IMG/VR virus record: IMGVR_UViG_2737471849_000005
Direction: 5' to 3' (one strand)
DNA from: a virus
Taxonomy: Duplodnaviria; Heunggongvirae; Uroviricota; Caudoviricetes
Length of the DNA stretch: 37,298 bases
Positions 3,772 through 34,224 of the stretch are shown here, one piece after another (the first letter of the stretch is position 1; every line of letters begins with the position of its first letter). Position numbers and translations under genes: made by a program. A model generated the notes under the pieces. That model did no database searches and was not told the origin of the DNA. It saw nothing but the letters and a program-made list of their open reading frames with translations.

Positions 3772-4005
3772 ATGCGTAATATTGAAACCCTCACGACTAA
3801 AACCGGACCGGATGATGCAGGGCTTAATATTTTACTGACAGAGGCTCGTCTGGAAGAACGCCGGGCAAGGGCTGAAGCAATGGCAGCTCGCCTTGATAAC
3901 CTGGCGTGTCATATCACATCCCGCCAACTAAACCACGTCGAAGCGGCAGAACTGCTGCGTGTGACTGCTGAAGCAATCCAGAACGAAGCGCAGGAGATCC
4001 ACTGA
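3772..4005 (+). CDS. Hypothetical phage early protein (78 aa)
   Basis: An AGGAG RBS lies 8 nt upstream of the ATG at 3772. The track's earlier start at 3766 is a TTG. Confidence 0.55.
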   Translation: MRNIETLTTKTGPDDAGLNILLTEARLEERRARAEAMAARLDNLACHITSRQLNHVEAAELLRVTAEAIQNEAQEIH

Positions 4006-4232
4006 TGGCTGATGCAATGGATCTCGTACAGCAGCGAGTTGAAGAAGAACGCCAACGTCATATCCGTGCTGCCCGTGCCAAAACGCCGGGCGTGTCCCGC
4101 GTGCTTTGCGTTGAGTGTGAAGCGCCAATTCCGCCAGCACGCCGCCGTGCCATTCCGGGGGTGCAGCTTTGCATTACCTGTCAGGAAATCGCAGAGCTGA
4201 AAGGCAAACATTACAACGGAGGTGCTGTATGA
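4005..4232 (+). CDS. TraR/DksA-family C4 zinc-finger protein (P2 orf82-like)
   Basis: The translation has a CVECEAPIP...CITC four-cysteine motif typical of phage TraR-like proteins. Confidence 0.75.
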   Translation: MADAMDLVQQRVEEERQRHIRAARAKTPGVSRVLCVECEAPIPPARRRAIPGVQLCITCQEIAELKGKHYNGGAV

Positions 4233-5086
4233 GCACCATCCTGAAATGGGCGGGAAATAAAACCGCCATTATGTCCGAACTGAAAAAACACCTTCCTGCT
4301 GGCCCGCGACTGGTTGAACCTTTCGCGGGTTCCTGTGCTGTGATGATGGAGACGGATTACCCCAGCTATCTGGTTGCGGATATTAATCCTGATTTAATCA
4401 ACCTCTATAAAAAGGTTGCTGCTGATTGTGAATCGTTTATATCTCGCGCCAGAGTTTTATTTGAGATCGCAAACAGGGAGGTGGCTTATTACAACATAAG
4501 GCAGGAGTTTAATTACTCCACTGAAATTACTGATTTCATGAAAGCGGTATATTTCCTGTATCTCAATCGTCACGGTTACCGTGGTTTATGTCGCTATAAC
4601 AAGAGCGGGCATTTCAACATTCCCTACGGTAATTATAAAAATCCGTATTTCCCTGAAAAAGAAATTCGCGCATTTGCAGAAAAGGCCCAGCGAGCAACGT
4701 TTATCTGCGCCAGCTTTGATGAAACGCTGGCGATGTTGAAGGCGGGGGATGTGGTGTATTGCGATCCGCCGTATGACGGTAAGTTTTCCGGCTATCACAC
4801 TGATGGTTTCACTGAAGATGACCAGTATCACCTGGCATCTGTTCTTGAACATCGGTCATCAGAAGGACATCCGGTCATTGTTTCTAACAGTGACACATCC
4901 CTGATCCGTTCGCTGTATCGCAATTTTACTCATCACTACATCAAGGCAAAACGCAGCATCGGTGTGGCAGCTGGCGAGGGTAAATCAGCAACAGAAATCA
5001 TTGCTGTTTCCGGGCCGCGCTGCTGGGTGGGATTTGATTATTCGCGTGGCGTGGATAGTTCTGCCGTGTACGGAGTACGTGCATGA
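4229..5086 (+). CDS. dam: DNA adenine methyltransferase (Dam-like, GATC type)
   Basis: The translation has the N-terminal [11 protein letters not shown]...PFAGS motif and the DPPY catalytic motif (VYCDPPYDG). Its start overlaps the TraR stop and its stop overlaps the A start (ATGA). Confidence 0.85.
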
Positions 5087-7497
5087 GCCATGCCGATATG
5101 AACAACTGCTGCGGCTTTAACGAGGCTGCCGCATCGTTCTCATGGAACAGCCCGAAAAAGGCCATTAACCCTTATCTGGACCCGGCGGAAGTTGCGCCGG
5201 TTTCTGCACTTTCAAACCTGATCACTCTGTACGCTGTCGATAACGAGCAGGAACAGCTGCGCCGCGAGGCACTGAGTGATCAGGTCTGGGAGCGTTATTT
5301 CTTTAATGAATCCCGTGATCCTGTCCAGCGCGAAATGGAGCAGGATAAGCTCATTAGTCGGGCAAGGCTGGCGCATGAGCAGCAGCGTTTTAATCCAGAT
5401 ATGGTCATTCTGGCGGACGTCAATGCCCAGCCTTCCCATATCAGCAAGCCGCTGATGCAACGTATTGAATACTTCAGCAGCCTTGGCAGGCCAAAGGCTT
5501 ATTCCCGCTATTTGCGTGAGACGATTAAGCCATGTCTGGAACGGCTGGAGCATGTACGCGACAGTCAGCTATCCACTTCTTTTCGCTTTATGGCAAGCCA
5601 TGAAGGGCTGGACGGCCTGCTGATTCTGCCTGAAATGAGTCAGGATCAGGTGAAACGCCTGTCCACCCTTGTTGCTGCGCATATGAGCATGTGCCTTGAT
5701 GCAGCTTGTGGCGATTTGTATGCCACCGATGACGTTAAGCCTGAAGAAATCCGCAAGACATGGGAAAAGGTGGCAGCAGAAACCCTTCGACTGGATGTCA
5801 TACCGCCTGCGTTTGAGCAACTCCGCCGGAAAAGAAACCGCCGTAAACCCGTGCCTTATGAACTCATTCCGGGTTCGCTGGCGCGTATGTTGTGCGCCGA
5901 CTGGTGGTACCGGAAATTATGGAAGATGCGTTGCGAATGGCGGGAAGAGCAGTTGCGTGCTGTTTGCCTGGTCAGCAAAAAAGCATCTCCCTATGTCAGC
6001 TATGAAGCCGTGATGCATAAACGTGAGCAGCGCCGTAAGTCGCTGGAGTTTTTCCGTTCTCATGAACTGGTGAACGAAGACGGCGACACGCTGGACATGG
6101 AGGATGTGGTAAACGCCAGCAGCAGCAACCCTGCGCATCGCCGCAATGAGATGATGGCCTGTGTTAAAGGTCTGGAGCTTATCGCGGAAATGCGTGGTGA
6201 CTGCGCCGTTTTCTACACCATCACCTGTCCGTCACGTTTCCATTCCACGCTAAATAACGGCAGGCCCAACCCGACCTGGACAAATACGACGGTAAGACAA
6301 AGCAGTGATTATCTGGTCGGCATGTTTGCTGCATTTCGTAAGGCGATGCACAAAGCCGGATTGCGCTGGTATGGCGTGCGGGTGGCTGAGCCGCATCATG
6401 ACGGTACAGTTCACTGGCACCTGTTGTGTTTTATGCGCAAAAAAGATCGCCGCGCCATTACTGCTTTGTTGCGTAAGTTTGCCATTCGTGAAGACCGCGA
6501 GGAGCTGGGTAATAACACGGGACCACGCTTTAAGTCTGAGCTGATAAACCCGCGCAAAGGTACGCCAACAAGCTACATCGCGAAATACATCAGTAAGAAC
6601 ATTGACGGGCGTGGTCTGGCTGGCGAGATCAGCAAGGAAACGGGTAAATCCCTGCGTGATAACGCTGAATACGTTAATGCCTGGGCGTCTCTGCATCGTG
6701 TTCAGCAATTCCGCTTCTTTGGCATTCCGGGGCGTCAGGCTTACCGTGAACTGCGATTGCTGGCTGGTCAGGCGGCAAGGCAACAGGGGGACAAAAAAGC
6801 AGGTGCGCCGGTACTGGATAACCCGCGCCTTGATGCAATCCTGGCTGCTGCTGATGCTGGTTGTTTTGCCACCTACATCATGAAGCAGGGCGGCGTACTG
6901 GTTCCCCGCAAATATCACCTCATCAGAACTGCTTATGAAATCAACGAAGAACCGACCGCATATGGCGATCACGGTATTCGTATTTATGGCATCTGGTCAC
7001 CCATTGCAGAGGGCAAGATCTGCACTCATGCGGTGAAGTGGAAAATGGTTCGTAAGGCCGTTGACGTTCAGGAGGCGGCAGCCGACCAGGGCGCTTGCGC
7101 CCCTTGGACTCGTGGCAATAACTGTCCCCTTGCTGAAAATTTGAACCAACAGGAGAAAGATAAATCAGCTGATGGGGACCCCAGAACGGACTTTACCCGC
7201 ATGGATGACAAGGAGTTGCACGATTACCTGCACAGTATGAACAAAAAGGAGCGCCGGGAACTGGCTGCAAGGTTACGTCTGGTGAAACCGAAACGGCGTA
7301 GAGACTACAAACAGCGAATTACAGACCATCAACGACAGCAGCTCGTCTATGAACTGAAATCCAGAGGATTTGATGGCAGCGAGAAAGAGGTCGATTTACT
7401 CCTTCGCGGCGGCAGTATTCCGTCAGGAGCAGGCCTGCGTATCTTCTATCGGAACCAGCGTTTGCAGGAAGATGATCAGTGGCGGAACCTGTATTAA
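5083..7497 (+). CDS. A: Replication initiation protein A (rolling-circle initiator, P2 gpA / 186 A family)
   Basis: An 804-aa ORF at the position of gene A, containing an HWHLL-like motif. Confidence 0.85.
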
Positions 7498-7591
7498 TTA
7501 CGCTGGTTAACAATTCGTGCTCTTAATAATACCAGGCATATCAGGCTGATAAGCGTAAAAAAACGTTTTACATCAGTAAGATTATTATATA

Positions 7592-7607
7592 CTGTAAATA
7601 TAAACAG
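7592..7607 (+). promoter_or_regulatory. LexA (SOS) box CTGT-N8-ACAG overlapping a putative promoter
   Basis: The sequence tactgtaaatataaacagtg at 7590-7609 closely matches the LexA consensus TACTGTATATATATACAGTA. It lies about 45 bp upstream of the ORF at 7650, with a TATACT -10-like hexamer adjacent. Confidence 0.65.
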
Positions 7608-7649
7608 TGGTTATGTATACAGTATTGCTTTGGTGTCATAGGAGGAAAG

Positions 7650-7838
7650 ATGCAGGACTATTTTTTGGAGTCTTTGAAGCTCCAGCGCATTGATTTTTTT
7701 CTTAAGCTTGTAGCGGCTAGTGAGTGTAGTGATGAAGAGAAGGGGCTGGCTCTGCAGTGGGTTTCTGAACTGACAGATGAACTCATGGCAAAAATCAGAA
7801 GCCACGAATACAACCGCTCAATGGATGTCATCAGCTGA
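7650..7838 (+). CDS. Small SOS-controlled protein (62 aa), possibly the N-terminal part of a Tum-like antirepressor
   Basis: An AGGAGG RBS precedes the ATG. It is the first ORF downstream of the LexA box. Confidence 0.5.
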   Translation: MQDYFLESLKLQRIDFFLKLVAASECSDEEKGLALQWVSELTDELMAKIRSHEYNRSMDVIS

Positions 7839-7848
7839 GGTGACTTTT

Positions 7849-8082
7849 ATGCGCATTGAAATAATGATCGATAAAGAGCAGAAGATTAGCCAGTCTACCC
7901 TGGACGCCCTTGAATCCGAGCTTTACCGCAATCTGCGCCCCCTGTATCCCAAAACGGTAATCCGTATCCGTAAAGGTAGCTCTAACGGTGTGGAACTGAC
8001 CGGACTGCAACTGGACGAAGAAAGAAAACAAGTGATGAAAATTATGCAGAAGGTGTGGGAAGACGACAGCTGGCTGCATTGA
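7849..8082 (+). CDS. DinI-like protein (77 aa)
   Basis: The translation MRIEIMIDKEQ...LDALESELYRNL...KIMQKVWEDDSWLH follows the DinI pattern (MRIEV..I.K...ALE.EL.RR...I..I.QE.WE..D.W). Confidence 0.75.
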   Translation: MRIEIMIDKEQKISQSTLDALESELYRNLRPLYPKTVIRIRKGSSNGVELTGLQLDEERKQVMKIMQKVWEDDSWLH

Positions 8083-8195
8083 TTTTGTCAATAGACGCTT
8101 GTTTTTACTAATCAAAAAGGGTTACATATGAGTGAGAGGCGATGTCAATCAGATATCGCCTTGTTTTTTGTCAAGAAAAGAATAATAGGCTAAAA

Positions 8196-8873
8196 ATGAA
8201 AATTAATAATGTAGCGTTACCAATATCTCTTGCTGTAATCCTAACTGGTTGCGTGCCACATGCTTCTAACCGAAATATCACTGCTATTGAAGTGGTGAAG
8301 CCTGCTATTGGGCAAAGTGCTACCGCCTACATGGGCGATCCCATTATCACATCTGCTACTGGATTTAAAACGGACGTACTAGAACTTGGTGCGGCTAATG
8401 GTGCATTGTCTTCTATCGCTGCTGGTACATATTGCAGTGAGGGGAATGGAATTTACCGCAATTATCATAACCCTCAAGCTGTTGCGTTAAAAAATCTCTA
8501 TGGGCAAATCGGTAACTATGTTGATTATGTTAGTTACGATGCTGCAAAAAATGAGATATCACCGCCAAATGGTACTTCTTATACTGCATCAGAAATTTCT
8601 ATCAAACGTGTTCCTGATGGGCTGTGTCGAGTTAGTAACTCATTGGTTAAGACTATCGAATACAATGGAAATGCAGGCGGTGTAATGAAGTTCACCTATC
8701 GTGAATTTGCAAACGATATGGCTCGTGCAGCATTTACAACAGATTTTTCTGTAGATTCTAAGGGAAGTGACGTTATCGCTTACAAAGGTGCCAAGTTCAA
8801 AGTGAACAAGGCTGATAACTCGTCTATTTCTTATACAATTATTTCTGGCTTTGACAAGGCTGTCACGTTCTAG
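8196..8873 (+). CDS. Predicted lipoprotein (226 aa), unknown function
   Basis: The N-terminus MKINNVALPISLAVILTGC carries a lipobox (LTGC). The gene is AT-rich, and the protein is Gly/Ser/Thr-rich and ends in Phe. Confidence 0.6.
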   Translation: MKINNVALPISLAVILTGCVPHASNRNITAIEVVKPAIGQSATAYMGDPIITSATGFKTDVLELGAANGALSSIAAGTYCSEGNGIYRNYHNPQAVALKNLYGQIGNYVDYVSYDAAKNEISPPNGTSYTASEISIKRVPDGLCRVSNSLVKTIEYNGNAGGVMKFTYREFANDMARAAFTTDFSVDSKGSDVIAYKGAKFKVNKADNSSISYTIISGFDKAVTF

Positions 8874-8976
8874 GTTTCACGCTTACTGAGTATGTTACGA
8901 TTTTGCACATTCTGCATAAACGCGCATGTCTATGCTGCATGAGATCGCATGATCGTTTGAGGATCTTTTGTGTTAA

Positions 8977-9002
8977 GGCCCGCCAGTTCTGGCGGGCTTT
9001 TG
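8977..9002 (+). terminator. Rho-independent terminator downstream of the lipoprotein gene
   Basis: A GC-rich hairpin (gcccgcc...ggcgggc) is followed by TTTT. Confidence 0.5.
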
Positions 9003-9046
9003 CGTAGATCATGCAGGTGCATGAAAACCACTACATAAAGCGGGCA

Positions 9047-9065
9047 GGCGTGGCGGGGATACGAG
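9047..9065. other. cos-like sequence (candidate cohesive-end site)
   Basis: The sequence GGCGTGGCGGGGATACGAG resembles the P2/186 19-nt cohesive end as I recall it (GGCG(A/T)GGCGGGGAAAGCA-). About 13 of 19 positions match. Confidence 0.35.
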
Positions 9066-9198
9066 CGCGCGTTATGACAAATAGATGATTAGCCTGATTT
9101 ATTCACAGCTGTATAAATGATCACCTTGTAATTAGGTAAGTAATGTCTTCTATTATCATTGATTTGATAGGATTAATCTGTTTTTTGAGGATTAGAGG

Positions 9199-11535
9199 AT
9201 GATTGAAGAGGTAGTTATTGACAAAGTAGGCTCATATAATGGCCCTACTCAGCTTTTACATGGGCTTTCTAAATTTAACTATTTATATGGAGCTAATGGT
9301 GCAGGTAAAACAACTATAAGTAAAATTATTAATGACCCTGAACAATATCCAACATGTCCGATTAAATGGAAAAATAATATATCTTTAATAAGCTACGTAT
9401 ATAATAAAGATTTTGTTGAAAGAAATTTTAGTCAAGATAAAATTAAAGGTGTATTTACCCTTGGTAGCGATCTTAAGGAGGATGAAGAGAAACTAATATC
9501 TCTTGAAGAAGAAAAAAATAAGCTAATAGAATCTATTATAGCAAAGGAAAAGCTAATAGATGGTGGTGATAATATATTAGGCGTTGTTAAACAAATCGAA
9601 GACCATGAAAAATCTTTTAAAGATTCATGTTGGAAGCAAAAAGTAAAACATGATAATGTGTTCTCAAAGGCTTTTGAGGGATTAAGGAATAGTAGTGAAA
9701 AATTTAAAGCTAGAGTGTTGGCTGAGTATGAAAATAACACATCAGAAGTTTGCTCAATAGCAGAGCTAATTGAGAAAGCAAAAATTGTTTTTTCTACTGA
9801 ATTGACATCACATGTATCAATTACAATTCCATCCTTCAATGGGATAGATGATATTTTGAGTAGGGAGATTTGGAGTGAGCGTATTCTAGGGAAAAAAGAC
9901 GTTAGTGTTTCAGACTTAATTACAATGCTCAATAACAGTGATTGGGTTAAGGAAGGTTTAACATATTTCAGTAAATCTAATCCCAAGTGCCCATTCTGCC
10001 AGCAGGATGTAAATGATAATATATTTGATAATCTATCATCATATTTTGATAAAACATATGAGTTAAAAAAAAGAGAAATCGATGCATTGGTTTTACAATA
10101 TGAACATCAACTTAATAATATCTTGCAGGCGATAGATGATATAAGGGCGATTAAATCTCCATTCATAAATTATGAAGTATTTGAGGATAAGGCTAAGATA
10201 GTATTATCTGAATTAAACAAGAATTTTGAATTGGCAAAAAATAAACGCAATTTTTTAAGTGAATCAGTTCATTTTAGTGACTTAAGTGAAGTTGTTGATG
10301 ATTTTATTTCTTTTTTGAATGATTCAAATCTATTGATAGATAATAATAACAAAATACACAGTAATAGAAAGGTAGAGGCTAGTAATCTTTCTAATCAGAT
10401 ATGGGCATATATCGTAAAGGTGGAGTTAAAGTCTGAAATAACTTCTTACCGTAGCGAATCTGATAAATTTAATAGGAAGTTACAAGGACTTAAATCTGGG
10501 TTAGAGGAAGACAAAAAGAAGTTAATGTTAAATGCTTCGGCTATTGAGGCAATTGAGTCTAATAAAACCAGTACTCTTCCAACTATTACAAAAATTAACA
10601 AGATTCTGGATTCTTATGGCTTCAAAAATTTTTACTTAAAACCCTCCGAAGATAAAAAGCATTATATGATAGTGAGAGATAGTGGAGATAATGCTCGTAC
10701 AACCCTTAGCGAGGGAGAAAAGACATTTATCACTTTTTTGTATTTTTATAGCCTTGTTAGAGGGAGTGATAATGCATCAGGTGTTTTAGATGATCGTGTT
10801 GTAGTATTTGATGATCCAATTTCAAGTTTAGATAGTGATATTCTGTTTATTGTAAGTTCGTTGATTAAAGATTTAATGGAGGATGTTCGTAAGGATGAAG
10901 GAAATATTAAGCAAATTATATTCCTTACACATAATATTTATTTTCATAAAGAGTTGACTTTTAATACTAAAAGATCCGGTAATCAAGCAATGAAAGAGGA
11001 GACTTTTTGGATTGTAAGGAAAAAAGGGAAGGTCTCATATCTTGAAAAGTGCGAATCAAACCCAATAAAAACGTCTTATGATTTGCTCTGGTGCGAATTG
11101 AGAAGAACAGATATTAATAATAATACTATACAAAATACAATGCGAAGGATTTTGGAGAATTACTTTAAGATATTAGGTGGGATGGATATTAGGAAGCTTG
11201 AATGTCATTTTTATGGTGATGAAAAAATCATATTTAAATCTTTAGTGTCATGGATTAATGATGGTTCTCATTTTGCAGGTGATGATCTTTATATGAATTT
11301 AGATACGGAGTCTGTGCAAAAATATTTAATTGTTTTTCAGAAGATATTTGAGTGTAGTGAGCATACTGCCCATTACAAAATGATGATGGGTGAGTTTTAT
11401 AGACCGTTAAATGAGTCACTTCATCTACAAGATGAGTTTGATATTGATGATAGTGCGAATGATGAGTATGCTTCGTCAAAAATTGAGATAGAAGATGGAA
11501 TAAACACATCTCTACATAGCAATACATATTTGTAA
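9199..11535 (+). CDS. ABC/Rad50-like ATPase (778 aa), RloC/PrrC-like; candidate anti-phage defence protein
   Basis: The translation has Walker A GANGAGKTT, ABC-signature-like LSEGEK, Walker B/D-loop VVVFDDPISSLD and H-loop FLTHN. A long Lys/Glu-rich insert contains CPFC. The C-terminal region has RRILE (R-x3-E) and RKLECH (R-x4-H). The gene is very AT-rich. Confidence 0.7.
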   Translation: MIEEVVIDKVGSYNGPTQLLHGLSKFNYLYGANGAGKTTISKIINDPEQYPTCPIKWKNNISLISYVYNKDFVERNFSQDKIKGVFTLGSDLKEDEEKLISLEEEKNKLIESIIAKEKLIDGGDNILGVVKQIEDHEKSFKDSCWKQKVKHDNVFSKAFEGLRNSSEKFKARVLAEYENNTSEVCSIAELIEKAKIVFSTELTSHVSITIPSFNGIDDILSREIWSERILGKKDVSVSDLITMLNNSDWVKEGLTYFSKSNPKCPFCQQDVNDNIFDNLSSYFDKTYELKKREIDALVLQYEHQLNNILQAIDDIRAIKSPFINYEVFEDKAKIVLSELNKNFELAKNKRNFLSESVHFSDLSEVVDDFISFLNDSNLLIDNNNKIHSNRKVEASNLSNQIWAYIVKVELKSEITSYRSESDKFNRKLQGLKSGLEEDKKKLMLNASAIEAIESNKTSTLPTITKINKILDSYGFKNFYLKPSEDKKHYMIVRDSGDNARTTLSEGEKTFITFLYFYSLVRGSDNASGVLDDRVVVFDDPISSLDSDILFIVSSLIKDLMEDVRKDEGNIKQIIFLTHNIYFHKELTFNTKRSGNQAMKEETFWIVRKKGKVSYLEKCESNPIKTSYDLLWCELRRTDINNNTIQNTMRRILENYFKILGGMDIRKLECHFYGDEKIIFKSLVSWINDGSHFAGDDLYMNLDTESVQKYLIVFQKIFECSEHTAHYKMMMGEFYRPLNESLHLQDEFDIDDSANDEYASSKIEIEDGINTSLHSNTYL

Positions 11536-11584
11536 TTTTATTGCAATTGCCAGTAGCAACAATACGGTACTGGCAACTAATATT

Positions 11585-12616
11585 TTAGTTAAGCTCATAT
11601 GGAGAAAATTCTATAAGTTTCTCCCCGAGCCATGCGTTTATTTCCATAAATCGTTTTTGCAAAGGAATTAATTCATTTATCACAAAAACCTTACTAGCCT
11701 TCTCCACATCCCCAAACCCCCCAACATTATTAGGCATTATCCCCATCATTTGCGGCGGCACACGGTGTGCCGCCATCATGTCGTCCCGGCTCACGTTCTT
11801 GATATTCAGAAACTCATCCTTCGCCGCGACTTCTGACAACGGGATAATCTGAAGCCCGTCCTTTTTGCCGTTAGGAGAGTACATAAACAGGTTGCGGAAG
11901 TTGCCTGGCCCTTTGGCGCTTTTCATTGCGTTGCGGAGGTTGTTCACATCTTCTTGGTTCTGTGCGGCATCGGTCATGTACATGATGAAACCTGCATGGC
12001 TGCCGTTGATGTAATACTTACGGCGGAACAGTGTGGCGGACTCGTTGAGCAGGGCTGACGGGATGGCAGAGAGATAACCTGGCAGGCCGTAGATCTCCTG
12101 GTTGATGTCCGGTTCCATCAGATGAAAAATGCTGCCTTTCGTGAACTGATACGGCTGGGCTGTCATACCGTCTTGCACAAACCAGTAGGTATCCAGGTCT
12201 AATCCGCGTCGGGTGTATTTTGCCAAAGCTGGCTCAAGGGCGATAACTTCACCAAAGCGGTTCGTGCGTTTCTCCAGGTAGGCGTTACCAAATACCAGAT
12301 AGTCCTGCACAAAACGCGAAAAAGCCTGCTGGCTGAGCAGCGGATGAGGGATATAGGTACTGGTCAGAATGTTGCACTTTACTGCAATCGGGGAACTGTG
12401 ATGCACGGCGGCGCGGAAGGTGCGCGCCAGTCCATTAAAGCTGACGGGCGGCTCATACCAGCGATCCATCTGTACGCATTCCACATAGTCCAGCAGTTCG
12501 CGGCGGTCCAGCACGGGGATGGGATCACCAAAGCTGAAAGCCTCAGCCGTTGGGCCGTTGCTTGGTTTTGTGTCGTGACCAACTGTTACCTGCTTGGTGT
12601 TTTTACGTTTGCTCAT
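11585..12616 (-). CDS. Q: Portal protein (P2 gpQ family)
   Basis: A 343-aa ORF whose size and position match P2 Q. Its start overlaps the upstream gene's stop (ATGA). Confidence 0.88.
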   Translation of the reverse strand: MSKRKNTKQVTVGHDTKPSNGPTAEAFSFGDPIPVLDRRELLDYVECVQMDRWYEPPVSFNGLARTFRAAVHHSSPIAVKCNILTSTYIPHPLLSQQAFSRFVQDYLVFGNAYLEKRTNRFGEVIALEPALAKYTRRGLDLDTYWFVQDGMTAQPYQFTKGSIFHLMEPDINQEIYGLPGYLSAIPSALLNESATLFRRKYYINGSHAGFIMYMTDAAQNQEDVNNLRNAMKSAKGPGNFRNLFMYSPNGKKDGLQIIPLSEVAAKDEFLNIKNVSRDDMMAAHRVPPQMMGIMPNNVGGFGDVEKASKVFVINELIPLQKRFMEINAWLGEKLIEFSPYELN

Positions 12617-13320
12617 TCTGCCAGTTCCTTGCTAGCGAGAGGCCATTCGCACATAAACAGCATTTTCCAGTCCTCTTCTGATAATTCTTTTTTCATATCG
12701 TTCAGCCAGTTATCAGTAAACAACATTGCTCTAGATGCTGCTGCGTCATCTGCGGTGAACACCATGCTGGTTACGCTGTTGTTTCTGCATAGCTTTTTAT
12801 ATTCCTGCCGTGCCTCTGGGTTAGGGCTGGGAGTGGTGTAGTAGGTGGCGTGGTGGTGTGCGTGCATAGAAATCCCTTTAGCGATGGCAATCATATTTCT
12901 CGGTGATTCACTCCAGGCATACTCTGACACGTAAACATTTCCACTGAGTGCGGAGGTGAGACTGCGGAGGTCGGTAAAATAAATTACTGCACCATTCGGA
13001 AGCTCCAGATGACTTTTGCCTGATTTTATTTTTCCAGTGTGCGTATAAGCTGCGGCCTGGCTTAAGAATGCTGATACATAGGCTTTGATTGCCTGCGCAG
13101 ATGCTGTGCTGCAGCAGAGGAAAATCTGGTTACGCCCGGTATGCAGTGCATCGTTCAGGGCTTCATAGGAAAAAAAGAAATCCGCGCCTACCTGGCGCAT
13201 TTTTGTGAGTACACGGTTTCTACTCTTTGGGCCAGTGTTCCACTCATACTGGTAAGCAAAGAAAGAGCTATCCACCGGAAGTCCCGCGATAGTCATGAGG
13301 TTAGTTGGGATTGGGGGCAT
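12613..13320 (-). CDS. Terminase large-subunit (gpP) paralogue, ATPase-domain-only (235 aa)
   Basis: The translation aligns by eye to residues ~140-390 of the adjacent P protein (e.g. RQVGADFFFSYEALNDALHTGRNQIFL versus RQIGATFYFAREALIDALLTGRNQIFL; LPNGAVIYF versus LPNGATLYF; MLFMCEW versus LLMCEF). Its start forms TGATG with the P stop and its stop forms ATGA with the Q start. Confidence 0.7.
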   Translation of the reverse strand: MPPIPTNLMTIAGLPVDSSFFAYQYEWNTGPKSRNRVLTKMRQVGADFFFSYEALNDALHTGRNQIFLCCSTASAQAIKAYVSAFLSQAAAYTHTGKIKSGKSHLELPNGAVIYFTDLRSLTSALSGNVYVSEYAWSESPRNMIAIAKGISMHAHHHATYYTTPSPNPEARQEYKKLCRNNSVTSMVFTADDAAASRAMLFTDNWLNDMKKELSEEDWKMLFMCEWPLASKELAE

Positions 13321-15086
13321 CAAAAAATCTCCACAATATTGCTGTTATTGGCGGATTCGCCCTGCAGCGGTTCGTTAAACAGTGCGTGCATTGTTGCCCA
13401 GGCCAGATCGGCGTGGCTGGCTTCTTCGCTGCGGCTGGCTTCATAGGTCGGGCGGTTGCCGCTGGCAGTGGTGGCGCGACGGATTGCCATAAAGGACTGC
13501 GCTATGTCGGTGTGCCCGGCGTCAAACTCCAGGCGGCGGTGGCTAATAATGTCGTAGGCCTTGAGTACCAGGGCGTTTTTAACGTTGGGGTTGTAGACAA
13601 ACTCCCGGACGGCAGGAAAAAACGCTTTCACGTTCTCGTAAACCCCGTGACCGACGCCGGTTGAGTCGATACCGATGTATATCACGTTGTACTGTTCAGT
13701 CAGTTTTTTGATGGCGTCAGCCTGGGCGCGGAAGTCCATCCCGCGCCACTGGTGACGCTCAAGAATGCGGAACTTACCGCCCGGCACGGCTGGCGGTGCC
13801 ACCACCACGCACCCGGCGCTGTCGCCGTTTTGCGTACCTTTTGCCGGGTCATAACCGATCCACACTTCGCGCCAGCCAAACGGGCGCAGGGCCAGTGCAT
13901 GAAAGTCGGTCCAGACTTCCCAACTGTCCACCATGCACGCCTGCAGCTCGCTGAGCGGGAACACGGACGCGAGATCGTCCACAAACTCGCACATCAGCAG
14001 GTTCTGGTATTCGTCCGGGCTGTACTCCATGCGCAACTGATCGAGGTCGAAAAGGTTACATCCGCCGCGCACTGCATCTTCCACGGTGACTATCTGGCGG
14101 TATTGCCCGTCTGCGCACAGCAGGCCGGGGGCCAGATTGCTGTGGGACAGGTCGATGTCCACCTTATCGGCTTTGTTGCGCCCACGGTTGAACAGCGCAC
14201 CGGACCAGAACGGATAAGCACTGTGTGTCAGGCTGGATGGCGTGGAAAAATAGGTCTGTCGCCATTTTTTGTGAATAGCCATACCGGAAGCCACTTTGCG
14301 CAGCTCCTGGAATTTCGGTATCCAGAAATATTCATCCAGATACAGGTTACCGTGATAACTCTGGGCAGTGCGGGCATTGGTGCCGAGGAAATACAGTGTG
14401 GCCCCGTTGGGAAGCACCATCGGATCGCCTTTCAGCTCCACCTCCACTTCTTTGGCAAAGTCGATGATGTACTGTTTGAAGACGTGGGCCTGTGCCTTAC
14501 TGGCAGAAAGGAAAATCTGGTTACGTCCGGTAAGCAGGGCGTCAATCAGGGCTTCACGGGCAAAATAGAAGGTCGCGCCGATCTGGCGTGACTTCAGCAG
14601 GTTGCGGATGCGGTTGGTTTTTCCGGCTTCCCACCAGTGGCGCTGGTAGTTGAACATGGAGGAATGGAAAATTTCTTCCAGCTTCTCAATCTGGTCATCG
14701 GTGAAAACATTCTTTTCAGGCTGACGGCGTGGGCCTTTGTTGCGGTTGGCGACGTTAGGGTTTAAGTCGGCTTCGTTGCCGCCATTGTTAAACTTGCCGA
14801 TCCGCGCGTGGCGCTCAGACTGGCGCGCCAGCAGGTCAATCTCTTTGAAATCTTTCCCTTCTTTGTGCTCCTTCATGATGAGCTGGCAGTAGCGTGCGGC
14901 GGTGGTGAGCTGCATCTGATCCAGAGGCCCATAGTCACCCCACTTGTCGCGTTTTTTCCAGCTGTGAACGGTTGCAACTTTCTCGCCCAGCATTTCAGCA
15001 ATGCGGGCTACGCGGTATCCCTGAAAGTACAGCAGCATGGCCTGCCGACGGGGATCGAGATCTGCGGGTGTCAGTGTGGTGTTCAT
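13320..15086 (-). CDS. P: Terminase large subunit / ATPase (P2 gpP family)
   Basis: A 588-aa ORF with an N-terminal HTH-like region and an ATPase core, at the P2 P position divergent from O. Confidence 0.88.
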   Translation of the reverse strand: MNTTLTPADLDPRRQAMLLYFQGYRVARIAEMLGEKVATVHSWKKRDKWGDYGPLDQMQLTTAARYCQLIMKEHKEGKDFKEIDLLARQSERHARIGKFNNGGNEADLNPNVANRNKGPRRQPEKNVFTDDQIEKLEEIFHSSMFNYQRHWWEAGKTNRIRNLLKSRQIGATFYFAREALIDALLTGRNQIFLSASKAQAHVFKQYIIDFAKEVEVELKGDPMVLPNGATLYFLGTNARTAQSYHGNLYLDEYFWIPKFQELRKVASGMAIHKKWRQTYFSTPSSLTHSAYPFWSGALFNRGRNKADKVDIDLSHSNLAPGLLCADGQYRQIVTVEDAVRGGCNLFDLDQLRMEYSPDEYQNLLMCEFVDDLASVFPLSELQACMVDSWEVWTDFHALALRPFGWREVWIGYDPAKGTQNGDSAGCVVVAPPAVPGGKFRILERHQWRGMDFRAQADAIKKLTEQYNVIYIGIDSTGVGHGVYENVKAFFPAVREFVYNPNVKNALVLKAYDIISHRRLEFDAGHTDIAQSFMAIRRATTASGNRPTYEASRSEEASHADLAWATMHALFNEPLQGESANNSNIVEIF

Positions 15087-15132
15087 GGCACAAACCTACA
15101 GCCTTGAATGAAGGCTTTCCCCGCCTGCGGTT

Positions 15133-15150
15133 TGTGTGGTTGTCGGTACA
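15133..15150. promoter_or_regulatory. Ogr/B-type late activator site TGT-N12-ACA in the P/O divergent region
   Basis: The sequence is TGTgtggttgtcggtACA. Its centre is about 55 bp upstream of a plausible O transcription start, which fits the P2 late-promoter architecture. Confidence 0.45.
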
Positions 15151-15228
15151 AATACCGCGCATTGTTTCACTGCCCCTATCACCGCAACCATAAGGCTCCA
15201 GTAAGTTTTTTCTAACGGAGCACGGCTC

Positions 15229-16062
15229 ATGACAGTGAAAGCAAAGCGTTTTCGCATCGGGGTGGAAGGTGCCACCACCGACGGACGCGAAATCCAGCGT
15301 GAATGGCTGGAACAGATGGCAGCCAGCTATAACCCGGCGGTGTATACCGCGCTGATTAACCTTGAGCACATCAAGTCTTATCTGCCGGACAGCACCTTTA
15401 ACCGCTACGGCAAGGTGACGGCGCTGTTTGCTGAAGAAATCATGGAAGGTCCGCTGGCAGGCAAGATGGCGCTGTATGCTGACGTTGAGCCAACGGAGTC
15501 CCTGGTGGAACTGGTGAAAAAAGGCCAGAAATTATTCACCTCTATGGAAGTCAGCCCGAAGTTCGCTGATACGGGCAAAGCCTACCTGGTCGGCCTGGCT
15601 GCCACTGATGACCCTGCCAGTCTGGGTACGGAAATGCTGACATTCAGCGCCAGTGCAGCCCATAACCCGCTGGCAAACCGCAAGCAGAATCCCGCCAATC
15701 TCTTTACCGCCGCAGAGGAAACGGTGATCGAACTGGAAGAAGTCCAGGACGACAAACCGTCCCTGTTTGCCCGCGTCACGGCGCTGTTTACCAAAAAAGA
15801 GCAGTCCGATGACGCCCGGTTCTCTGATGTGCATAAGGCCGTGGAGCTGGTCGCCACTGAGCAGCAGAACCTGAGCGCACGCACCGAAAAATCCCTGTCT
15901 GAGCAGGAAGAACGCCTGTCTGAGCTGGAGACTGCCCTGCAGGCACAGCAAACCGCCTTTAACGAACTGGTGGACAAGCTGAGTCATGAAGACAGCCGCC
16001 AGGACTACCGCCAGCGTGCAACAGGCGGTAACGCCCCCGCTGACACTCTGACCAATTGCTGA
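15229..16062 (+). CDS. O: Capsid scaffolding protein (P2 gpO family)
   Basis: Position and the N-terminal MTVKAKRFRIGVEGATTDGREI sequence fit gpO. Confidence 0.85.
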   Translation: MTVKAKRFRIGVEGATTDGREIQREWLEQMAASYNPAVYTALINLEHIKSYLPDSTFNRYGKVTALFAEEIMEGPLAGKMALYADVEPTESLVELVKKGQKLFTSMEVSPKFADTGKAYLVGLAATDDPASLGTEMLTFSASAAHNPLANRKQNPANLFTAAEETVIELEEVQDDKPSLFARVTALFTKKEQSDDARFSDVHKAVELVATEQQNLSARTEKSLSEQEERLSELETALQAQQTAFNELVDKLSHEDSRQDYRQRATGGNAPADTLTNC

Positions 16063-16078
16063 TGGAGCACAAAACCTG

Positions 16079-17137
16079 ATGAAGAAGAATACCCGCTTTG
16101 CTTTTAACGCTTACCTGCAGCAGCTGGCGCGTCTGAACGGTGTGGCAGTTGAAGAACTGTCCAGCAAGTTCACCGTGGAGCCGTCTGTACAGCAGACGCT
16201 GGAAGACCAGATCCAGCAGTCCGCCGCTTTCCTGACGCTGATTAACGTCACGCCAGTGACTGAGCAGTCCGGTCAGCTGCTGGGGTTGGGGGTTGGTAGC
16301 ACCATTGCCGGAACCACTGACACCACCGCGAAAGAGCGTGAACCTGTCGATCCTACGCTGATGGTCGATGTGGAATACAAATGCGAGCAGACCAACTTTG
16401 ACACGGTACTGACCTACGCGAAGCTGGACCTGTGGGCGAAGTTTCAGGATTTCCAGGTGCGTATCCGTGACGCCATCGTGAAACGTCAGGCACTGGACCG
16501 CATCATGATCGGCTTTAACGGCGTGAAGCGTGCGAAAACCTCCAACCGTAGCGAAAACCCGCTGCTGCAGGATGTGAACAAAGGCTGGCTGCAGAAAATC
16601 CGTGAAGATGCACCGGATCACGTCATGGGTAGCACCACCACGGGCGGTGAAACCACACCGGGTGCGGTGAAAGTCGGGAAAGGTGGCGAATATGCCAACC
16701 TGGACGCCGTGGTGATGGATGCCGTCAATGAGCTTATCGACGTGGTCTACCAGGACGATGACGATCTGGTGGTGATTTGCGGTCGTGAACTGCTGTCTGA
16801 CAAGTATTTCCCGCTGGTCAACAAAGAGCAGGAAAACAGTGAAAAACTGGCTGCCGATATGATCATCAGTCAGAAACGCATGGGTGGCCTGCAGGCCGTG
16901 CGTGCGCCGTTCTTCCCGCCGAATGCACTGCTGATCACCCGTCTGGATAACCTGTCCATCTACTGGCAGGAAGACACCCGCCGCCGCTCAGTTATCGACA
17001 ACCCGAAACGTGACCGGATTGAAAACTTTGAATCCGTTAACGAAGCCTATGTGGTTGAGGACTACCGCTGCGCCGCACTGGTGGAAAACATCCAGATTGG
17101 CGACTTCAGCGCCGCAGCAGCAGAAACCGGAGCGTAA
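16079..17137 (+). CDS. N: Major capsid protein (P2 gpN family)
   Basis: The translation contains ..RFAFNAYLQQLARLNG...KFTVEPSVQQTL.., which resembles P2 N. Confidence 0.88.
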   Translation: MKKNTRFAFNAYLQQLARLNGVAVEELSSKFTVEPSVQQTLEDQIQQSAAFLTLINVTPVTEQSGQLLGLGVGSTIAGTTDTTAKEREPVDPTLMVDVEYKCEQTNFDTVLTYAKLDLWAKFQDFQVRIRDAIVKRQALDRIMIGFNGVKRAKTSNRSENPLLQDVNKGWLQKIREDAPDHVMGSTTTGGETTPGAVKVGKGGEYANLDAVVMDAVNELIDVVYQDDDDLVVICGRELLSDKYFPLVNKEQENSEKLAADMIISQKRMGGLQAVRAPFFPPNALLITRLDNLSIYWQEDTRRRSVIDNPKRDRIENFESVNEAYVVEDYRCAALVENIQIGDFSAAAAETGA

Positions 17138-17140
17138 TTC

Positions 17141-17791
17141 ATGAGCCTGAGTCCCGCACGGCAGCATCGCCTGCGTGTTCAGGCTGAACAGGCCGCCCGC
17201 GAGGGCGGCAGTGTTCGCCACGCGTCGGGCTATGACCTGATGCTGCTGCAACTGGCGGAAGACCGCCGCCGTCTCAAGGGCGTTCAGTCCACGGTCAAAA
17301 AAGCGGAAATCAAGGTGGAGCTGCTGCCGAAGTACGCCGCCTGGGCAGAGGGTGTCCTGGCTGCCGGAGGCGCTCAACAGGATGACGTGCTGATGTACGT
17401 GATGCTGTGGCGCATTGATGCCGGAGATTATGCCGGGGCGCTGGAGATCGGGCGTCATGCCCTGCGTCATGGCTGGGTGATGCCGCTGGGTAATCGCAAT
17501 GTGCAGACCGTGCTGGCAGAGGAAATGGCAGACGCTGCGCAGAGCGCAATGCTTGCCGCCACCGGCTTTGATGTCGATCTGTTGCTGCAGACGCTGGAGC
17601 TGACAGACGGTCTGGATATGCCGGACCAGTCACGGGCGCGTCTGCATAAAGCGATTGGCGCTGTCCTGAGTGAAAGCAATCCGGCTTCCGCCCTTAATCA
17701 TCTCAACCATGCGTTACAGCTTGATCCCCGCTGTGGCGTGAAAAAAGACAAACAGCAGCTGGAGCGCAGACTGCGCAATGACAGCCGCTGA
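17141..17791 (+). CDS. M: Terminase small/endonuclease subunit (P2 gpM family)
   Basis: The translation contains ..QDDVLMYVMLWRIDAGDYAGALEIGRHAL.., which resembles P2 M. Confidence 0.85.
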   Translation: MSLSPARQHRLRVQAEQAAREGGSVRHASGYDLMLLQLAEDRRRLKGVQSTVKKAEIKVELLPKYAAWAEGVLAAGGAQQDDVLMYVMLWRIDAGDYAGALEIGRHALRHGWVMPLGNRNVQTVLAEEMADAAQSAMLAATGFDVDLLLQTLELTDGLDMPDQSRARLHKAIGAVLSESNPASALNHLNHALQLDPRCGVKKDKQQLERRLRNDSR

Positions 17792-25085: not shown

Positions 25086-25687
25086 TGGATAATGCCGTAT
25101 TAAATAGCGAGTTTATTGCCACGAAGGCGGGGGATATTACTGTCTATAATTATAATGGTGAAACACGAGAATATATTTCCACATCAACTGAATATCTTGC
25201 TGTTGGTGTCGGTATTCCGGCATGTTCCTGTTTAGATGCACCAGGAACATATAAAGCTGGTTATGCCATCTGCCGCTCTGCGGATTTAAACTCATGGGAA
25301 TATGTGCCAGACCATCGCGGAGAAATCGTCTATAACACCGAAACGGGAGACGCCAAAGAAATCACAACTCCGGGTGATTACCCCGAAAATACAACCACTA
25401 TCGCCCCATTAACGCCATACGATAAATGGGATGGTGAGAAATGGGTGACCGATACTGAGGCACAGCATCACGCCGCAGTAGACGCGGCAGAAGCACAGCG
25501 TCAGTCACTGATTGATACTGCAATGGCTTCCATTAGTCTGATTCAACTGAAATTACAGGCTGGGCGGAAGCTGATGCAGGCAGAGACCTCCCGACTTAAC
25601 ACTGTGCTGGATTACATTGACGCGGTGACGGCAACAGATACCAGCACCGCGCCGGATGTCATCTGGCCTGAACTGCCGGAGGAGTAG
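25085..25687 (+). CDS. G: Tail fibre assembly chaperone G (Tfa)
   Basis: Position and the conserved C-terminal ...DYIDAV.ATDTSTAPDVIWPELPE tail. Confidence 0.8.
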   Translation: MDNAVLNSEFIATKAGDITVYNYNGETREYISTSTEYLAVGVGIPACSCLDAPGTYKAGYAICRSADLNSWEYVPDHRGEIVYNTETGDAKEITTPGDYPENTTTIAPLTPYDKWDGEKWVTDTEAQHHAAVDAAEAQRQSLIDTAMASISLIQLKLQAGRKLMQAETSRLNTVLDYIDAVTATDTSTAPDVIWPELPEE

Positions 25688-26099
25688 GCCATTCAATATC
25701 TGGCGCACTGGAAGTATCGACCAGCTCCAGTGCGTCCAGATAATCCAGCCACAAATTATATTGCGCCAGTTCCTCACCTTTCAGACGACCAATAGCCGCT
25801 TTACCAGCCCATTGTTTACTGTTCATATAATCGTTGGCCTGATTAATCAATTGCTGCTTTTTAAGTTCGGCTGCAGCAATCTGTTCCTCATGTGTTGGTG
25901 GTGGAATTTCAGACCATGCAGGAAAACCATTTTCTCCAGCGATACGGATTTTTCCTTTCGGCGGTAATCCGGAAAACTCAATATACACTTGCTCATCAAC
26001 TTCAACAGCATCATCTGGCCATGAGTCAGCTTGCGTGTAATCCTCTTTCATCTCCAAGGGATAGAAAGAGTTTGTAGTCGCGGAATATATGTAATTCAT
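25659..26099 (-). CDS. Alternative tail fibre assembly chaperone (Tfa') on the inverted strand
   Basis: Its C-terminal ...DYLDALELVDTSSAPDIEWPTPP tail is homologous to the G C-terminus. It is convergent with G. Confidence 0.7.
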   Translation of the reverse strand: MNYIYSATTNSFYPLEMKEDYTQADSWPDDAVEVDEQVYIEFSGLPPKGKIRIAGENGFPAWSEIPPPTHEEQIAAAELKKQQLINQANDYMNSKQWAGKAAIGRLKGEELAQYNLWLDYLDALELVDTSSAPDIEWPTPPAVQAR

Positions 26100-26125
26100 T
26101 TTTCACTCCATAAAGTTAAAAGAAA

Positions 26126-34171: not shown

Positions 34172-34224
34172 AATAATGCGGTATCATTATTGTGAATTTA
34201 GCAAAAATGGGGAGAACTCGAAAA

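Follow-up and report, generated by a model that had tools for sequence, protein, structure and literature searches.

The interval at positions 7498–11584 of the DNA analysed here, a 37,298-nt Caudoviricetes virus sequence (IMGVR_UViG_2737471849_000005; hereafter the window), is very probably the cos-proximal variable region of a prophage of the P2/186/Fels-2 family, composed of four parts and including RloC-like cargo. The hotspot itself has already been described: the gpA–gpQ interval of P2-like prophages, with its adjacency to cos, was reported by Rousset et al. (2022, Cell Host Microbe, PMC9122126) and earlier by Odegrip et al. (2006); flanks, cos adjacency and variable content are the same here, nothing essential differs, and the stretch, while not new, illustrates a known arrangement well. 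Added here are the presence of two independently assorting sub-slots around a 148-bp conserved cos block, and the junctions of sub-slot 2, which lie 6 bp past the cohesive end and inside Q. The proposed layout comprises a core segment (7498–8080), sub-slot 1 (8081–8923), a terminator and cos segment (8924–9071) and sub-slot 2 (9072 to about 11627), with the following features:

5083–7497, gene A flank
7567–7609, plus strand, p95-like SOS promoter, read from the sequence
7567–7572, −35 element TTTACA of this promoter
7590–7595, −10 element TACTGT of this promoter
7590–7609, 20-nt candidate LexA site TACTGTAAATATAAACAGTG, overlapping the −10 element
7650–7838, plus strand, 62-aa ORF in the tumA position (phrog_698, E 5.9e-38; WP_001154434)
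7849–8082, plus strand, DinI-like/TumB ORF, 77 aa (PF06183, E 6.6e-23)
8081–8923, variable sub-slot 1, from the DinI stop to the cos block (blastn breakpoints against eight E. coli loci)
8136–8162, plus strand, hairpin followed by a T-run, resembling t95a, the partial terminator of 186 (terminator scan)
8196–8873, plus strand, lipoprotein of the Fels-2 STM2726 family, 225 aa, lipobox LTGC
8924–9071, conserved cos block, common to all comparators (blastn)
8975–9004, plus strand, t95b-like intrinsic terminator closing the SOS operon
9047–9065, plus strand, cos cohesive-end sequence GGCGTGGCGGGGATACGAG, from comparison with the annotated 186 and P2 ends
9072–11627 (end approximate), variable sub-slot 2, from 6 bp past cos into the 3′ end of Q
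9199–11535, plus strand, RloC-like ABC-ATPase with a HEPN-type anticodon-nuclease domain, 778 aa (PF13166, AAA_13, E 5.8e-164)
11547–11576, candidate bidirectional terminator formed by a hairpin where the ATPase and Q genes converge
11585–12616, minus strand, portal gene Q (PF04860)

The first-pass annotation had described this stretch as an AT-rich island departing from the phage core and holding four cargo ORFs, a terminator and a cos-like site. All of these elements were located within 7498–11584 (cos at 9047–9065), and the compositional departure was borne out: GC content is 0.351 in the interval versus 0.525 over the remaining window, and the lowest-GC 4087-bp segment of the whole sequence starts at position 7501. 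The difference persists in a GC profile, though it is uneven along the interval, both in GC3 per gene and in GC per segment. Relative to the core genes (mean GC3 0.587, sd 0.087, 28 genes), the 62-aa ORF (0.524) and the DinI ORF (0.577) fall inside the distribution; the lipoprotein gene (GC3 0.314, z −3.1) and the ATPase gene (GC 0.306, GC3 0.246, z −3.9) are depleted, and the cos block has a GC content of 0.547.

The promoter-proximal part corresponds to an SOS operon. The sequence CTGTAAATATAAACAG at 7592–7607 is the sole CTGT-N8-ACAG match within the window, although this pattern alone is not significant, at least one match being present in 46 of 100 shuffles. The candidate LexA site agrees at 17 of 20 positions with the LexA consensus, and it lies across the −10 element, as annotated for the p95 promoter of 186. 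The order of elements is that of the 186 operon (p95-tum-t95a-orf97-t95b-cos), including the two terminators ahead of cos; the PSP3 tumA/tumB and Fels-2 STM2728–STM2726 layouts also match, and positions 7000–9071 are 97.2% identical to Fels-2 DNA. Whereas 186 encodes a single Tum, the window resembles PSP3 and Fels-2 in having Tum split over two ORFs. The 62-aa ORF shares its position with PSP3 tumA and Fels-2 STM2728 and is a candidate SOS-induced antirepressor, but it is unrelated in sequence to these Tum proteins, no similarity being detected to the N-terminal half of 186 Tum or to PSP3 TumA. The DinI-like ORF shares 78% identity with PSP3 TumB and 41% with the C-terminal half of 186 Tum. 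Because 1125 of 5426 complete E. coli genomes keep the tum/DinI segment, whose GC3 is normal, the module at 7498–8080 is conserved phage regulatory core and not cargo; these two ORFs, equivalents of the tumA/tumB operon of PSP3, 186 and Fels-2, must be removed from the four initially counted as cargo. By this arrangement, a LexA-repressed p95-like promoter would drive both ORFs and would couple prophage induction to the SOS response. A mutagen raises expression of the homologous Fels-2 operon STM2726-2727-2728 by 2.6- to 14.8-fold (PMC2225428), and a “hypothetical + DinI” pair is also listed in Table S5A of Rousset et al. (PMC9122126).

Sub-slot 1 opens with the t95a-like hairpin (−16.9 kcal/mol, z −4.4), which is at the place equivalent to t95a in 186. 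Other E. coli loci carry DarTG, a KAP NTPase or small hypothetical genes in this sub-slot, or nothing, and P2 old/tin and 186 orf97 sit on the same side of cos. The lipoprotein encoded here has a lipobox G18–C19 that is invariant across 22 homologues, which are confined to Enterobacterales (Salmonella, Klebsiella, Yersinia and Pantoea included), and its segment is found in 50 of the 5426 E. coli genomes; no informative homologue or fold match was found for this protein. The gene is that of Fels-2 STM2726, and several Klebsiella and Salmonella phages also carry it, at odds with the suggestion that the cargo is strain-specific. 186 Orf97 has the same length and position, yet is not homologous; by analogy with orf97, the lipoprotein gene is probably transcribed by read-through of the partial terminator, and its product may have an envelope-located exclusion or conversion function.

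The cos block is retained whatever the neighbouring cargo, with 87–100% identity in all eight E. coli loci compared (blastn), and is present in 1277 of 5426 complete E. coli genomes. Its terminator hairpin (8975–9000; −24.9 kcal/mol, z −4.7) has a GC-rich stem of 11 bp with UUUU after it, and 186 t95b occupies the same position. The first 13 nt of the cohesive-end sequence are identical to the annotated 186 cohesive end GGCGTGGCGGGGAAAGCAT, the annotated P2 end GGCGAGGCGGGGAAAGCAC serving as a further comparator; this 13-mer occurs nowhere else in the window, where chance alone would give 0.06 matches. An upstream motif, GCATnAAAACC...AAAGyGGGC, is common to the window, 186 and P2.

At the left junction of sub-slot 2, GGCGTGGCGGGGATACGAGCGCGCG is common to all loci and divergence begins from the very next base; at the right junction, homology picks up again at 11628–11651, within Q (blastn). 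Loci with the ATPase share identical C-terminal residues of Q, and loci with other cargo have different ones; thus, the last ~15–22 codons of Q travel with the cargo. Elsewhere, sub-slot 2 holds retron St85, DprA-PRT or a hypothetical gene, or is empty. The hairpin between the ATPase and Q genes folds at −15.7 kcal/mol on the plus strand and −16.4 kcal/mol on the minus strand (z −4.3 and −3.8), at a place equivalent to that of tQ/tW in P2 and 186.

A comparison of the slot across prophages identified the A–Q interval as the published variable hotspot and excluded universal conservation of its gene set: the A–Q flanks are found in 1312 of 5426 complete E. coli genomes, at least 80% of 7000–12100 in only 21, and the ATPase segment in 26. 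Elsewhere, many defence genes unrelated to those here occupy the slot, which contains retrons, AIPR, TIR, DprA-PRT, DUF262, GmrSD, KAP NTPases and other genes, and in one locus (L009) both sub-slots are empty. The breakpoints are sharp (8080/8081, 8923/8924, 9071/9072 and 11628–11651). The same ATPase pairs with five sub-slot-1 contents (nothing, DarTG, a small hypothetical gene, a KAP NTPase or the lipoprotein), probably because cargo is swapped by recombination, for which the conserved cos block and the main part of Q serve as arms of homology. The idea of a single, recently exchanged island is only partly borne out: the content is variable, but it does not form one unit. P2 old and tin map between A and cos; the ATPase gene is found between cos and Q, an interval without genes in P2 and 186.

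Accordingly, a single strain-specific block of four accessory genes, acquired recently and spanning all 4.1 kb, is close to untenable: the overall AT-richness of the stretch is compatible with this reading, as is the confirmation of exactly the same complete set in only one complete E. coli genome, WL297, but the widespread tum-position and DinI ORFs with core-like GC3 match the 186/PSP3/Fels-2 SOS operon, the GC-normal cos block divides the interval, and the independent assortment of ATPase and lipoprotein, visible in the breakpoint map, refutes a single unit. A role for the cargo genes in the life cycle of the phage that carries them (packaging, cos recognition, lysis or replication), instead of in competition between phages, is also very unlikely. 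Their adjacency to cos and the placement of the lipoprotein in a DNA-damage-induced operon would suit such roles; however, in related prophages that share cos, Q and P these slots are filled by different genes or left empty, the cos-to-Q interval of P2 and 186 lacks any gene, and the cargo is of foreign composition (GC3 0.25–0.31). Less easily set aside, though still doubtful, is the idea that the lipoprotein acts on the host envelope to the benefit of the bacterium, in lysogenic conversion or virulence, and does not exclude phages. A conserved lipobox protein restricted to Enterobacterales would fit, and Rousset et al. report non-defence cargo, such as toxins, at the hotspot; SOS-linked expression, on the other hand, suits a role at induction better than one in a stable lysogen, and 186 orf97, in the same position although non-homologous, blocks 186 infection.

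The ATPase of sub-slot 2 agrees with every sequence criterion of RloC that was tested, in line with its initial designation as RloC-like. RloC is the wobble-nucleotide-excising, zinc-responsive anticodon nuclease of Geobacillus kaustophilus and Acinetobacter baylyi; the length of the window protein, 778 aa, falls inside the RloC range of 658–897 aa. This protein shares with RloC the ABC motifs (Walker A at 31–39, LSEGE at 503–507, DDP at 538–540 and H578), a long helical insert centred on a CX2C (CPFC zinc hook, 264–267) and a C-terminal R-X3-E-X37-SH triad (R649-X3-E653-X37-S690-H691); all of these motifs are invariant in 36 homologues. In contrast to RloC, the ATPase is prophage-borne and adjoins cos. 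It also has an extra acidic, disordered tail of 45 residues (734–778), which is absent from homologues of 42–45% identity; homologues at this level are named “wobble nucleotide-excising tRNase” by JGI. A PADLOC search returned PDC-S06 (E 1.5e-266, 884.7 bits; protein residues 1–733 against model positions 1–725 of 732), PrrC (2.5e-11; residues 459–703) and weak matches to LmuB (9e-14) and AriA. PDC-S06 is a prediction, a candidate system for which no published validation was found. PrrC likewise joins an ABC-ATPase to a C-terminal anticodon-nuclease triad, but is 341–416 aa long, has no coiled-coil/zinc-hook insert and always lies in a type I R-M locus, none of which is true of the window protein.

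An AlphaFold2 model searched with Foldseek has a Rad50-like head with a helical insert, its best structural matches being Rad50, Lamassu LmuB, retron PtuA and AriA; the active-site loop (691–699) is of low confidence, and no RloC or PrrC structure exists for comparison with the C-terminal domain. These matches, with the weak PADLOC hits to LmuB and AriA, favour a DNA-directed protein of Rad50/SbcC/Lamassu type (repair, recombination or DNA-targeting defence) over a tRNA nuclease, and RloC's own ATPase is reported to be DNA-dependent (PMC3458546). Such a function is nonetheless improbable, given that a single gene lies between cos and Q, unaccompanied by a partner nuclease gene (Mre11/SbcD, LmuA, PtuB or AriB), that the last 100 residues contain the invariant triad of PrrC/RloC anticodon nucleases, and that the PrrC model matches residues 459–703. 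The most likely function of the ATPase is that of an anticodon nuclease working by abortive infection, as predicted from its sequence and by analogy with Geobacillus and Acinetobacter RloC. The Rad50-like ABC head and zinc-hook coiled coil would keep the C-terminal HEPN-type nuclease inactive until the ATPase state is altered by DNA damage or by foreign DNA ends from an infecting phage; the freed nuclease would then cut tRNA anticodon loops, halting translation so that the competing phage fails. Prophage-borne ABC-HEPN proteins were proposed earlier to exclude other phages (PMC3710099).

No promoter above chance was identified for the ATPase gene. In the catalogue of Rousset et al., “AAA_13, RloC-like” is system #5, with 420 occurrences, and the ATPase alleles WP_106509408, WP_001741452 and WP_061357951 are listed in Table S5A (PMC9122126); AAA_13 is absent from Table S2 and was not among the systems cloned there. 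Relatives of the ATPase are carried by an Enterobacter prophage, in this same slot, and by a P4-like satellite, in its psu-int hotspot. P2 old and tin are accessory exclusion genes in the same A–Q interval, but they lie on the other side of cos from the ATPase, and neither has a homologue in the window. P2 Old resembles the ATPase in combining an ABC-ATPase with a nuclease, although its effector is TOPRIM and not HEPN; it has been reported to kill by tRNA cleavage (2026 preprint).

The window is a complete prophage of the P2/186/Fels-2 family, and the elements that the first-pass annotation had placed between replication gene A and portal gene Q (7498–11584), namely four ORFs, a terminator and a cos-like site, are all present:

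5083–7497, replication gene A (PF05840, E 4e-127)
7567–7572, promoter −35, TTTACA, with a 17-nt spacer to the −10
7590–7595, promoter −10, TACTGT, which opens the 20-nt LexA site
7590–7609, LexA site TACTGTAAATATAAACAGTG, overlapping the −10, directly downstream of gene A
7650–7838, 62-aa ORF, 3′ of CTGTAAATATAAACAG (7592–7607)
7849–8082, DinI ORF (PF06183, E 6.6e-23)
8136–8162, hairpin with a T-run, at the position expected for t95a
8196–8873, lipoprotein ORF (8196 being the best start), lipobox LTGC
8975–9000, strong hairpin terminator (−24.9 kcal/mol, z −4.7)
9047–9065, cos site
9199–11535, AAA_13 ATPase of 778 aa (E 5.8e-164)
11585–12616, minus strand, portal gene Q (PF04860)
13320–15086, minus strand, terminase gene P

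The interval has a GC content of 0.351, compared with 0.525 elsewhere, and of all 4087-bp segments in the sequence the one starting at 7501 has the lowest GC, which bears out the departure in composition noted earlier. The AT-richness is uneven across the interval, which is not one compositional unit: relative to 28 core genes (mean GC3 0.587, sd 0.087), the 62-aa ORF (0.524) and the DinI ORF (0.577) lie within the distribution, the lipoprotein (0.314, z −3.1) and the ATPase (0.246, z −3.9) fall outside it, and the block containing cos (8924–9071) has a GC content of 0.547. An Rfam scan of 7300–11800 returned zero matches, a search for transposon-like or att-like repeats around the cargo gave only short chance matches, and a sigma-70 promoter scan yielded 20 sites, compared with 17.3 expected, with no promoter assignable to the ATPase.

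The limits of the variable DNA were mapped by blastn comparison with eight prophage loci of E. coli that have these flanks, and the breakpoints were sharp and reproducible across these loci. Homology is unbroken from gene A through 8080, at the end of the DinI gene, is absent from 8081 to 8923, is regained as a 148-bp block (8924–9071) comprising the terminator and cos, is absent again from 9072, and picks up at 11628–11651, within the 3′ end of Q. The sequence GGCGTGGCGGGGATACGAGCGCGCG is common to every locus and divergence begins at the immediately following base, the variable DNA on the Q side starting 6 bp beyond the cohesive end. Therefore, the interval consists of two variable sub-slots with cos between them, the first holding the lipoprotein and the second the ATPase in the window, and the earlier treatment of the whole stretch as a single compositional and evolutionary unit has to be abandoned. 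The C-terminal approximately 20 residues of Q (the last approximately 15–22 codons, 11585–11650) are the same in all ATPase-bearing loci and differ where the second sub-slot holds a retron, DprA-PRT or nothing; since the 3′ end of Q thus co-varies with the cargo, one recombination arm lies inside an essential structural gene. In other prophages, the second sub-slot contains retron St85 (BL21), a DprA-phosphoribosyltransferase (KK19-02) or a hypothetical gene (TL012), or is empty (F2_407_2_2), and the same ATPase was found with five different contents of the first sub-slot, indicating that the two sides assort independently.

Of 5426 complete E. coli genomes, 1312 have the flanks (any match to 7000–12100), 1277 the cos block, 1125 the tum-position ORF with DinI, 50 the lipoprotein and 26 the ATPase (full length in 21). 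In a spread sample of loci, the annotated contents of the slot comprised at least 15 types of cargo, and one locus was empty. The region is thus located between A and Q homologues, adjoins cos (the variable DNA ends at 8923 and restarts at 9072, with cos at 9047–9065) and varies in content, its flanks occurring in 1312 genomes and its present content in 21. The feature is therefore an instance of the already described P2-family defence hotspot, and the proposal that the A–Q stretch is variable in P2-like prophages was upheld. The cargo had also been equated with the position of P2 old and tin, which needs correction: old and tin are located on the A-to-cos side, whereas the ATPase lies on the other side of cos, which is empty in P2 (167 bp) and 186 (176 bp).

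The same gpA–gpQ locus was surveyed in E. coli by Rousset et al. (2022, PMC9122126), who recorded 18,150 loci, 1,650 arrangements and 169 systems, noted the adjacency of cos, and speculated that the cohesive ends serve as recombination substrates. The breakpoint map is consistent with such cos-linked exchange of cargo and refines the published suggestion by adding the start of the variable DNA at cos + 6 bp, the arm internal to Q and the independence of the two sub-slots. The cohesive-end sequence of the window reads GGCGTGGCGGGGATACGAG, the annotated ends being GGCGTGGCGGGGAAAGCAT in 186 and GGCGAGGCGGGGAAAGCAC in P2, and an upstream motif, GCATnAAAACC...AAAGyGGGC, is common to all three.

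The left part of the interval, comprising the 62-aa ORF and the DinI ORF, is phage core and not cargo. The LexA site agrees at 17 of 20 positions with the LexA consensus, and CTGTAAATATAAACAG is the sole CTGT-N8-ACAG in the window, a pattern that is not significant by itself (a match was found in 46 of 100 shuffles). The operator lies over the promoter −10, the arrangement annotated in 186, and would be expected to function as in an operon of the 186 type. In 186, gene A is followed by the LexA-controlled promoter p95 (with a LexA site over its −10), tum, the partial terminator t95a, orf97, the terminator t95b and cos, and the strong terminator of the window likewise sits just 5′ of cos. In PSP3, tum is split into tumA (60 aa) and tumB (DinI); the order in Fels-2 is STM2728 (62 aa), DinI gene, STM2726 (lipoprotein), cos, one cargo gene unlike that of the window, and Q. 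The DinI ORF of the window shows 78% identity to PSP3 TumB and 41% to the DinI-like C-terminal half of 186 Tum (E 3e-24). The 62-aa ORF gave no alignment with the N-terminal half of 186 Tum or with PSP3 TumA and is therefore a positional equivalent only; its position and regulation suggest that it would be the antirepressor.

Fels-2 and the window are 97.2% identical over 7000–9071, and the Fels-2 operon STM2726-STM2727-STM2728 was induced by the mutagen MX in a microarray experiment, with fold changes of 2.6 to 14.8 (each p ≤ 0.01), in the same induced list as umuDC and ruvAB (PMC2225428). By analogy, this induction supports the view that the first three ORFs of the interval, including the lipoprotein, are under SOS control. 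The SOS-controlled small ORF and the DinI-like ORF had been counted as cargo; their presence in 1125 of the 5426 genomes, their core-like GC3 and the SOS operon layout shared with 186, PSP3 and Fels-2 argue against that assignment.

The lipoprotein belongs to the Fels-2 STM2726 family; no Pfam family, NCBIfam family or recognisable fold was found for it, and a comparison of its sequence with solved structures gave no meaningful match. The start at 8196 is backed by RefSeq and by the conserved lipobox. A longer form of the ORF (243 aa, ATG at 8142) starts inside the t95a-like hairpin (window 8142–8195). Homology to 186 Orf97, which is annotated as blocking 186 infection, was considered and rejected: the two genes occupy the same position and both have 243 codons from the first ATG, but BLASTP gave no match (E 4.5). 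The match in length between the long form and orf97 is a coincidence. Judging from its position and SOS-linked expression, our guess is that the lipoprotein takes part in envelope-level exclusion or conversion. A further reading, improbable and drawn from gene position and regulation, is that the lipoprotein represents a novel type of envelope-acting phage factor, expressed exclusively at prophage induction; like T5 Llp, it might mask or alter a receptor, by which progeny would be spared loss on debris or rivals would be barred from superinfection. In the same reading, the Rad50-like head of the ATPase, the gene of which abuts cos, may sense the free cohesive ends of incoming cos phages.

Davidov and Kaufmann based their definition of RloC on ABC-ATPase motifs, a CX2C zinc hook at the centre of a coiled-coil insert, an Arg-X3-Glu-X36-52-(Ser)His triad near the C-terminus, and a length of 658–897 aa (PMC2610378). 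The ATPase, the 778-aa length of which falls inside this range, contains the ABC motifs GANGAGKTT (Walker A, 31–39), LSEGE (signature, 503–507) and VVVFDDP (534–540, with DDP at 538–540), the last forming the Walker B/D-loop stretch together with S542, S543 and D545, and the switch His H578; a candidate zinc hook, CPFC (C264-P-F-C267, 264–267), in a loop predicted to join two helical halves; and the triad R649-X3-E653-X37-S690-H691. All four sequence features of the definition are therefore present, in agreement with the RloC-like designation given at first pass, and the ABC, CPFC and triad residues are invariant across 36 aligned homologues, down to 41% identity. In the AF2 model (pLDDT 78.7), strands of the head lie at the two ends of the protein, helices make up an insert at approximately 93–454 (about 360 aa), the C-terminal domain (628–733) is all-helical and the acidic tail (740–778) is disordered. 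A Foldseek search of PDB with the whole model placed Rad50 at the top, with Lamassu LmuB, retron PtuA and AriA also among the matches; it recognised the Rad50/SMC head only, and the TM-scores were low because the model is multi-domain. A sequence search of solved structures gave no meaningful match for the ATPase and no RloC or PrrC structure. As a separate observation, residues 734–778 (window 11398–11535) form an acidic tail of approximately 45 residues with predicted disorder (pLDDT about 30), which is present in close enterobacterial relatives (777–780 aa) and absent from the 42–45% identical homologues (about 735–760 aa).

In PADLOC, the ATPase matches PDC-S06 (PDLC04890) over its full length (E 1.5e-266, protein 1–733 against 1–725 of the 732-position model), and weaker matches were obtained to LmuB (9e-14), PrrC (E 2.5e-11, residues 459–703), AriA and others; NCBIfam has no family for it. 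PrrC is a compact protein of 341–416 aa that lacks a coiled-coil insert and is encoded in a type I restriction-modification (hsd) locus, whereas the ATPase has 778 aa and an insert of about 360 aa, with cos and Q as its neighbours. The LmuB match and the structural similarity of the head would bring Lamassu into consideration; however, LmuB is encoded with an LmuA effector, often also with LmuC, and the cassette in the window has a single gene and a far stronger match to PDC-S06. The cassette contains no gene besides that of the ATPase, which excludes a partner nuclease. No model for Old (ABC + TOPRIM) or Tin appeared among the PADLOC matches for any of the four ORFs.

For the RloC-like protein, homologues of 42–45% identity across the Proteobacteria bear the automated JGI name "wobble nucleotide-excising tRNase". 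A role as a cutter of tRNA anticodon loops that excises the wobble nucleotide, under the control of zinc and of a DNA-dependent ATPase, is hinted at only indirectly, by this name. By analogy with Geobacillus and Acinetobacter RloC, the Rad50-like ATPase would most likely keep a HEPN-type nuclease inactive; the sensing of DNA damage or foreign DNA would release this nuclease, which would then cut tRNA anticodon loops and halt translation.

This main cargo already figures in two catalogues, in one as RloC-like AAA_13 and in the other as the PADLOC candidate PDC-S06. System #5, "AAA_13", is annotated as "RloC-like" with 420 occurrences in Table S5B of Rousset et al. (2022, PMC9122126), and its exemplar shares just 25% identity with the ATPase of the window. 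WP_106509408, WP_001741452 and WP_061357951, listed as AAA_13 in Table S5A of that study, are the ATPases of three comparator loci (L004, L005 and L003), in which the DNA of the ATPase region is approximately 98–99.5% identical to the window. AAA_13 is absent from Table S2 and was thus not among the systems cloned (Rousset et al., 2022, PMC9122126). Prophage-borne ABC-HEPN proteins were noted, and proposed to exclude other phages, by Anantharaman et al. (2013, PMC3710099). For PDC-S06 and for prophage RloC, the literature search yielded survey papers only and no validating experiment; the searched literature likewise contained no phage challenge of RloC-type anticodon nucleases from prophage or satellite hotspots. 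The practical value of the locus is that it offers a clean natural cassette for a candidate RloC, one gene of approximately 2.5 kb with its own upstream region, bounded by cos and by Q.

Relatives of the ATPase were found in other hotspots. A 62%-identical protein is encoded in the A–Q slot of a P2-like prophage of Enterobacter hormaechei (L016, GCA_023754595.1) that has no DinI gene, and a 51%-identical protein is encoded between psu and int of a P4-like satellite (L019, GCA_012710875.1, AATCFV010000011.1), a site that is the cos-proximal hotspot of the satellite. This distribution fits the published remark that a few systems are common to both hotspots.

The closest relative of the locus is located in E. 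coli WL297 (L001, NZ_CP128613.1, 1159840–1170940), in a decayed prophage adjoining ssrA. It keeps the counterpart of window 4000–12116, including both cargo genes, and has a deletion corresponding to 12117–17679 (the rest of Q, P and capsid genes), which suggests that the cargo is kept while the phage decays. A segment of approximately 770 bp between Q and P (12548–13317) is absent from all eight E. coli comparators, in which Q and P abut. It gives Q a 186-like N-terminus in place of the first approximately 22 codons and carries an ORF on the minus strand (12613–13323, 236 aa) with a Terminase_6N ATPase domain only (E 9.5e-17; phrog_3746). Since an ORF at the corresponding place in phage 186 ("similar to Orf12") shows 32% identity to it, the segment is of the 186 mosaic type, and this homologue explains the terminase-like ORF, which had been considered as a possible novelty. 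Further patches of lower GC content (0.36–0.48) were found at 1001–2500, 24501–26500, 34001–34500 and 36001–36500; the first covers the CI repressor, the GC3 of which (0.315) is the lowest among the core genes, and the second spans the region of the tail fibre, tail-fibre assembly and invertase.
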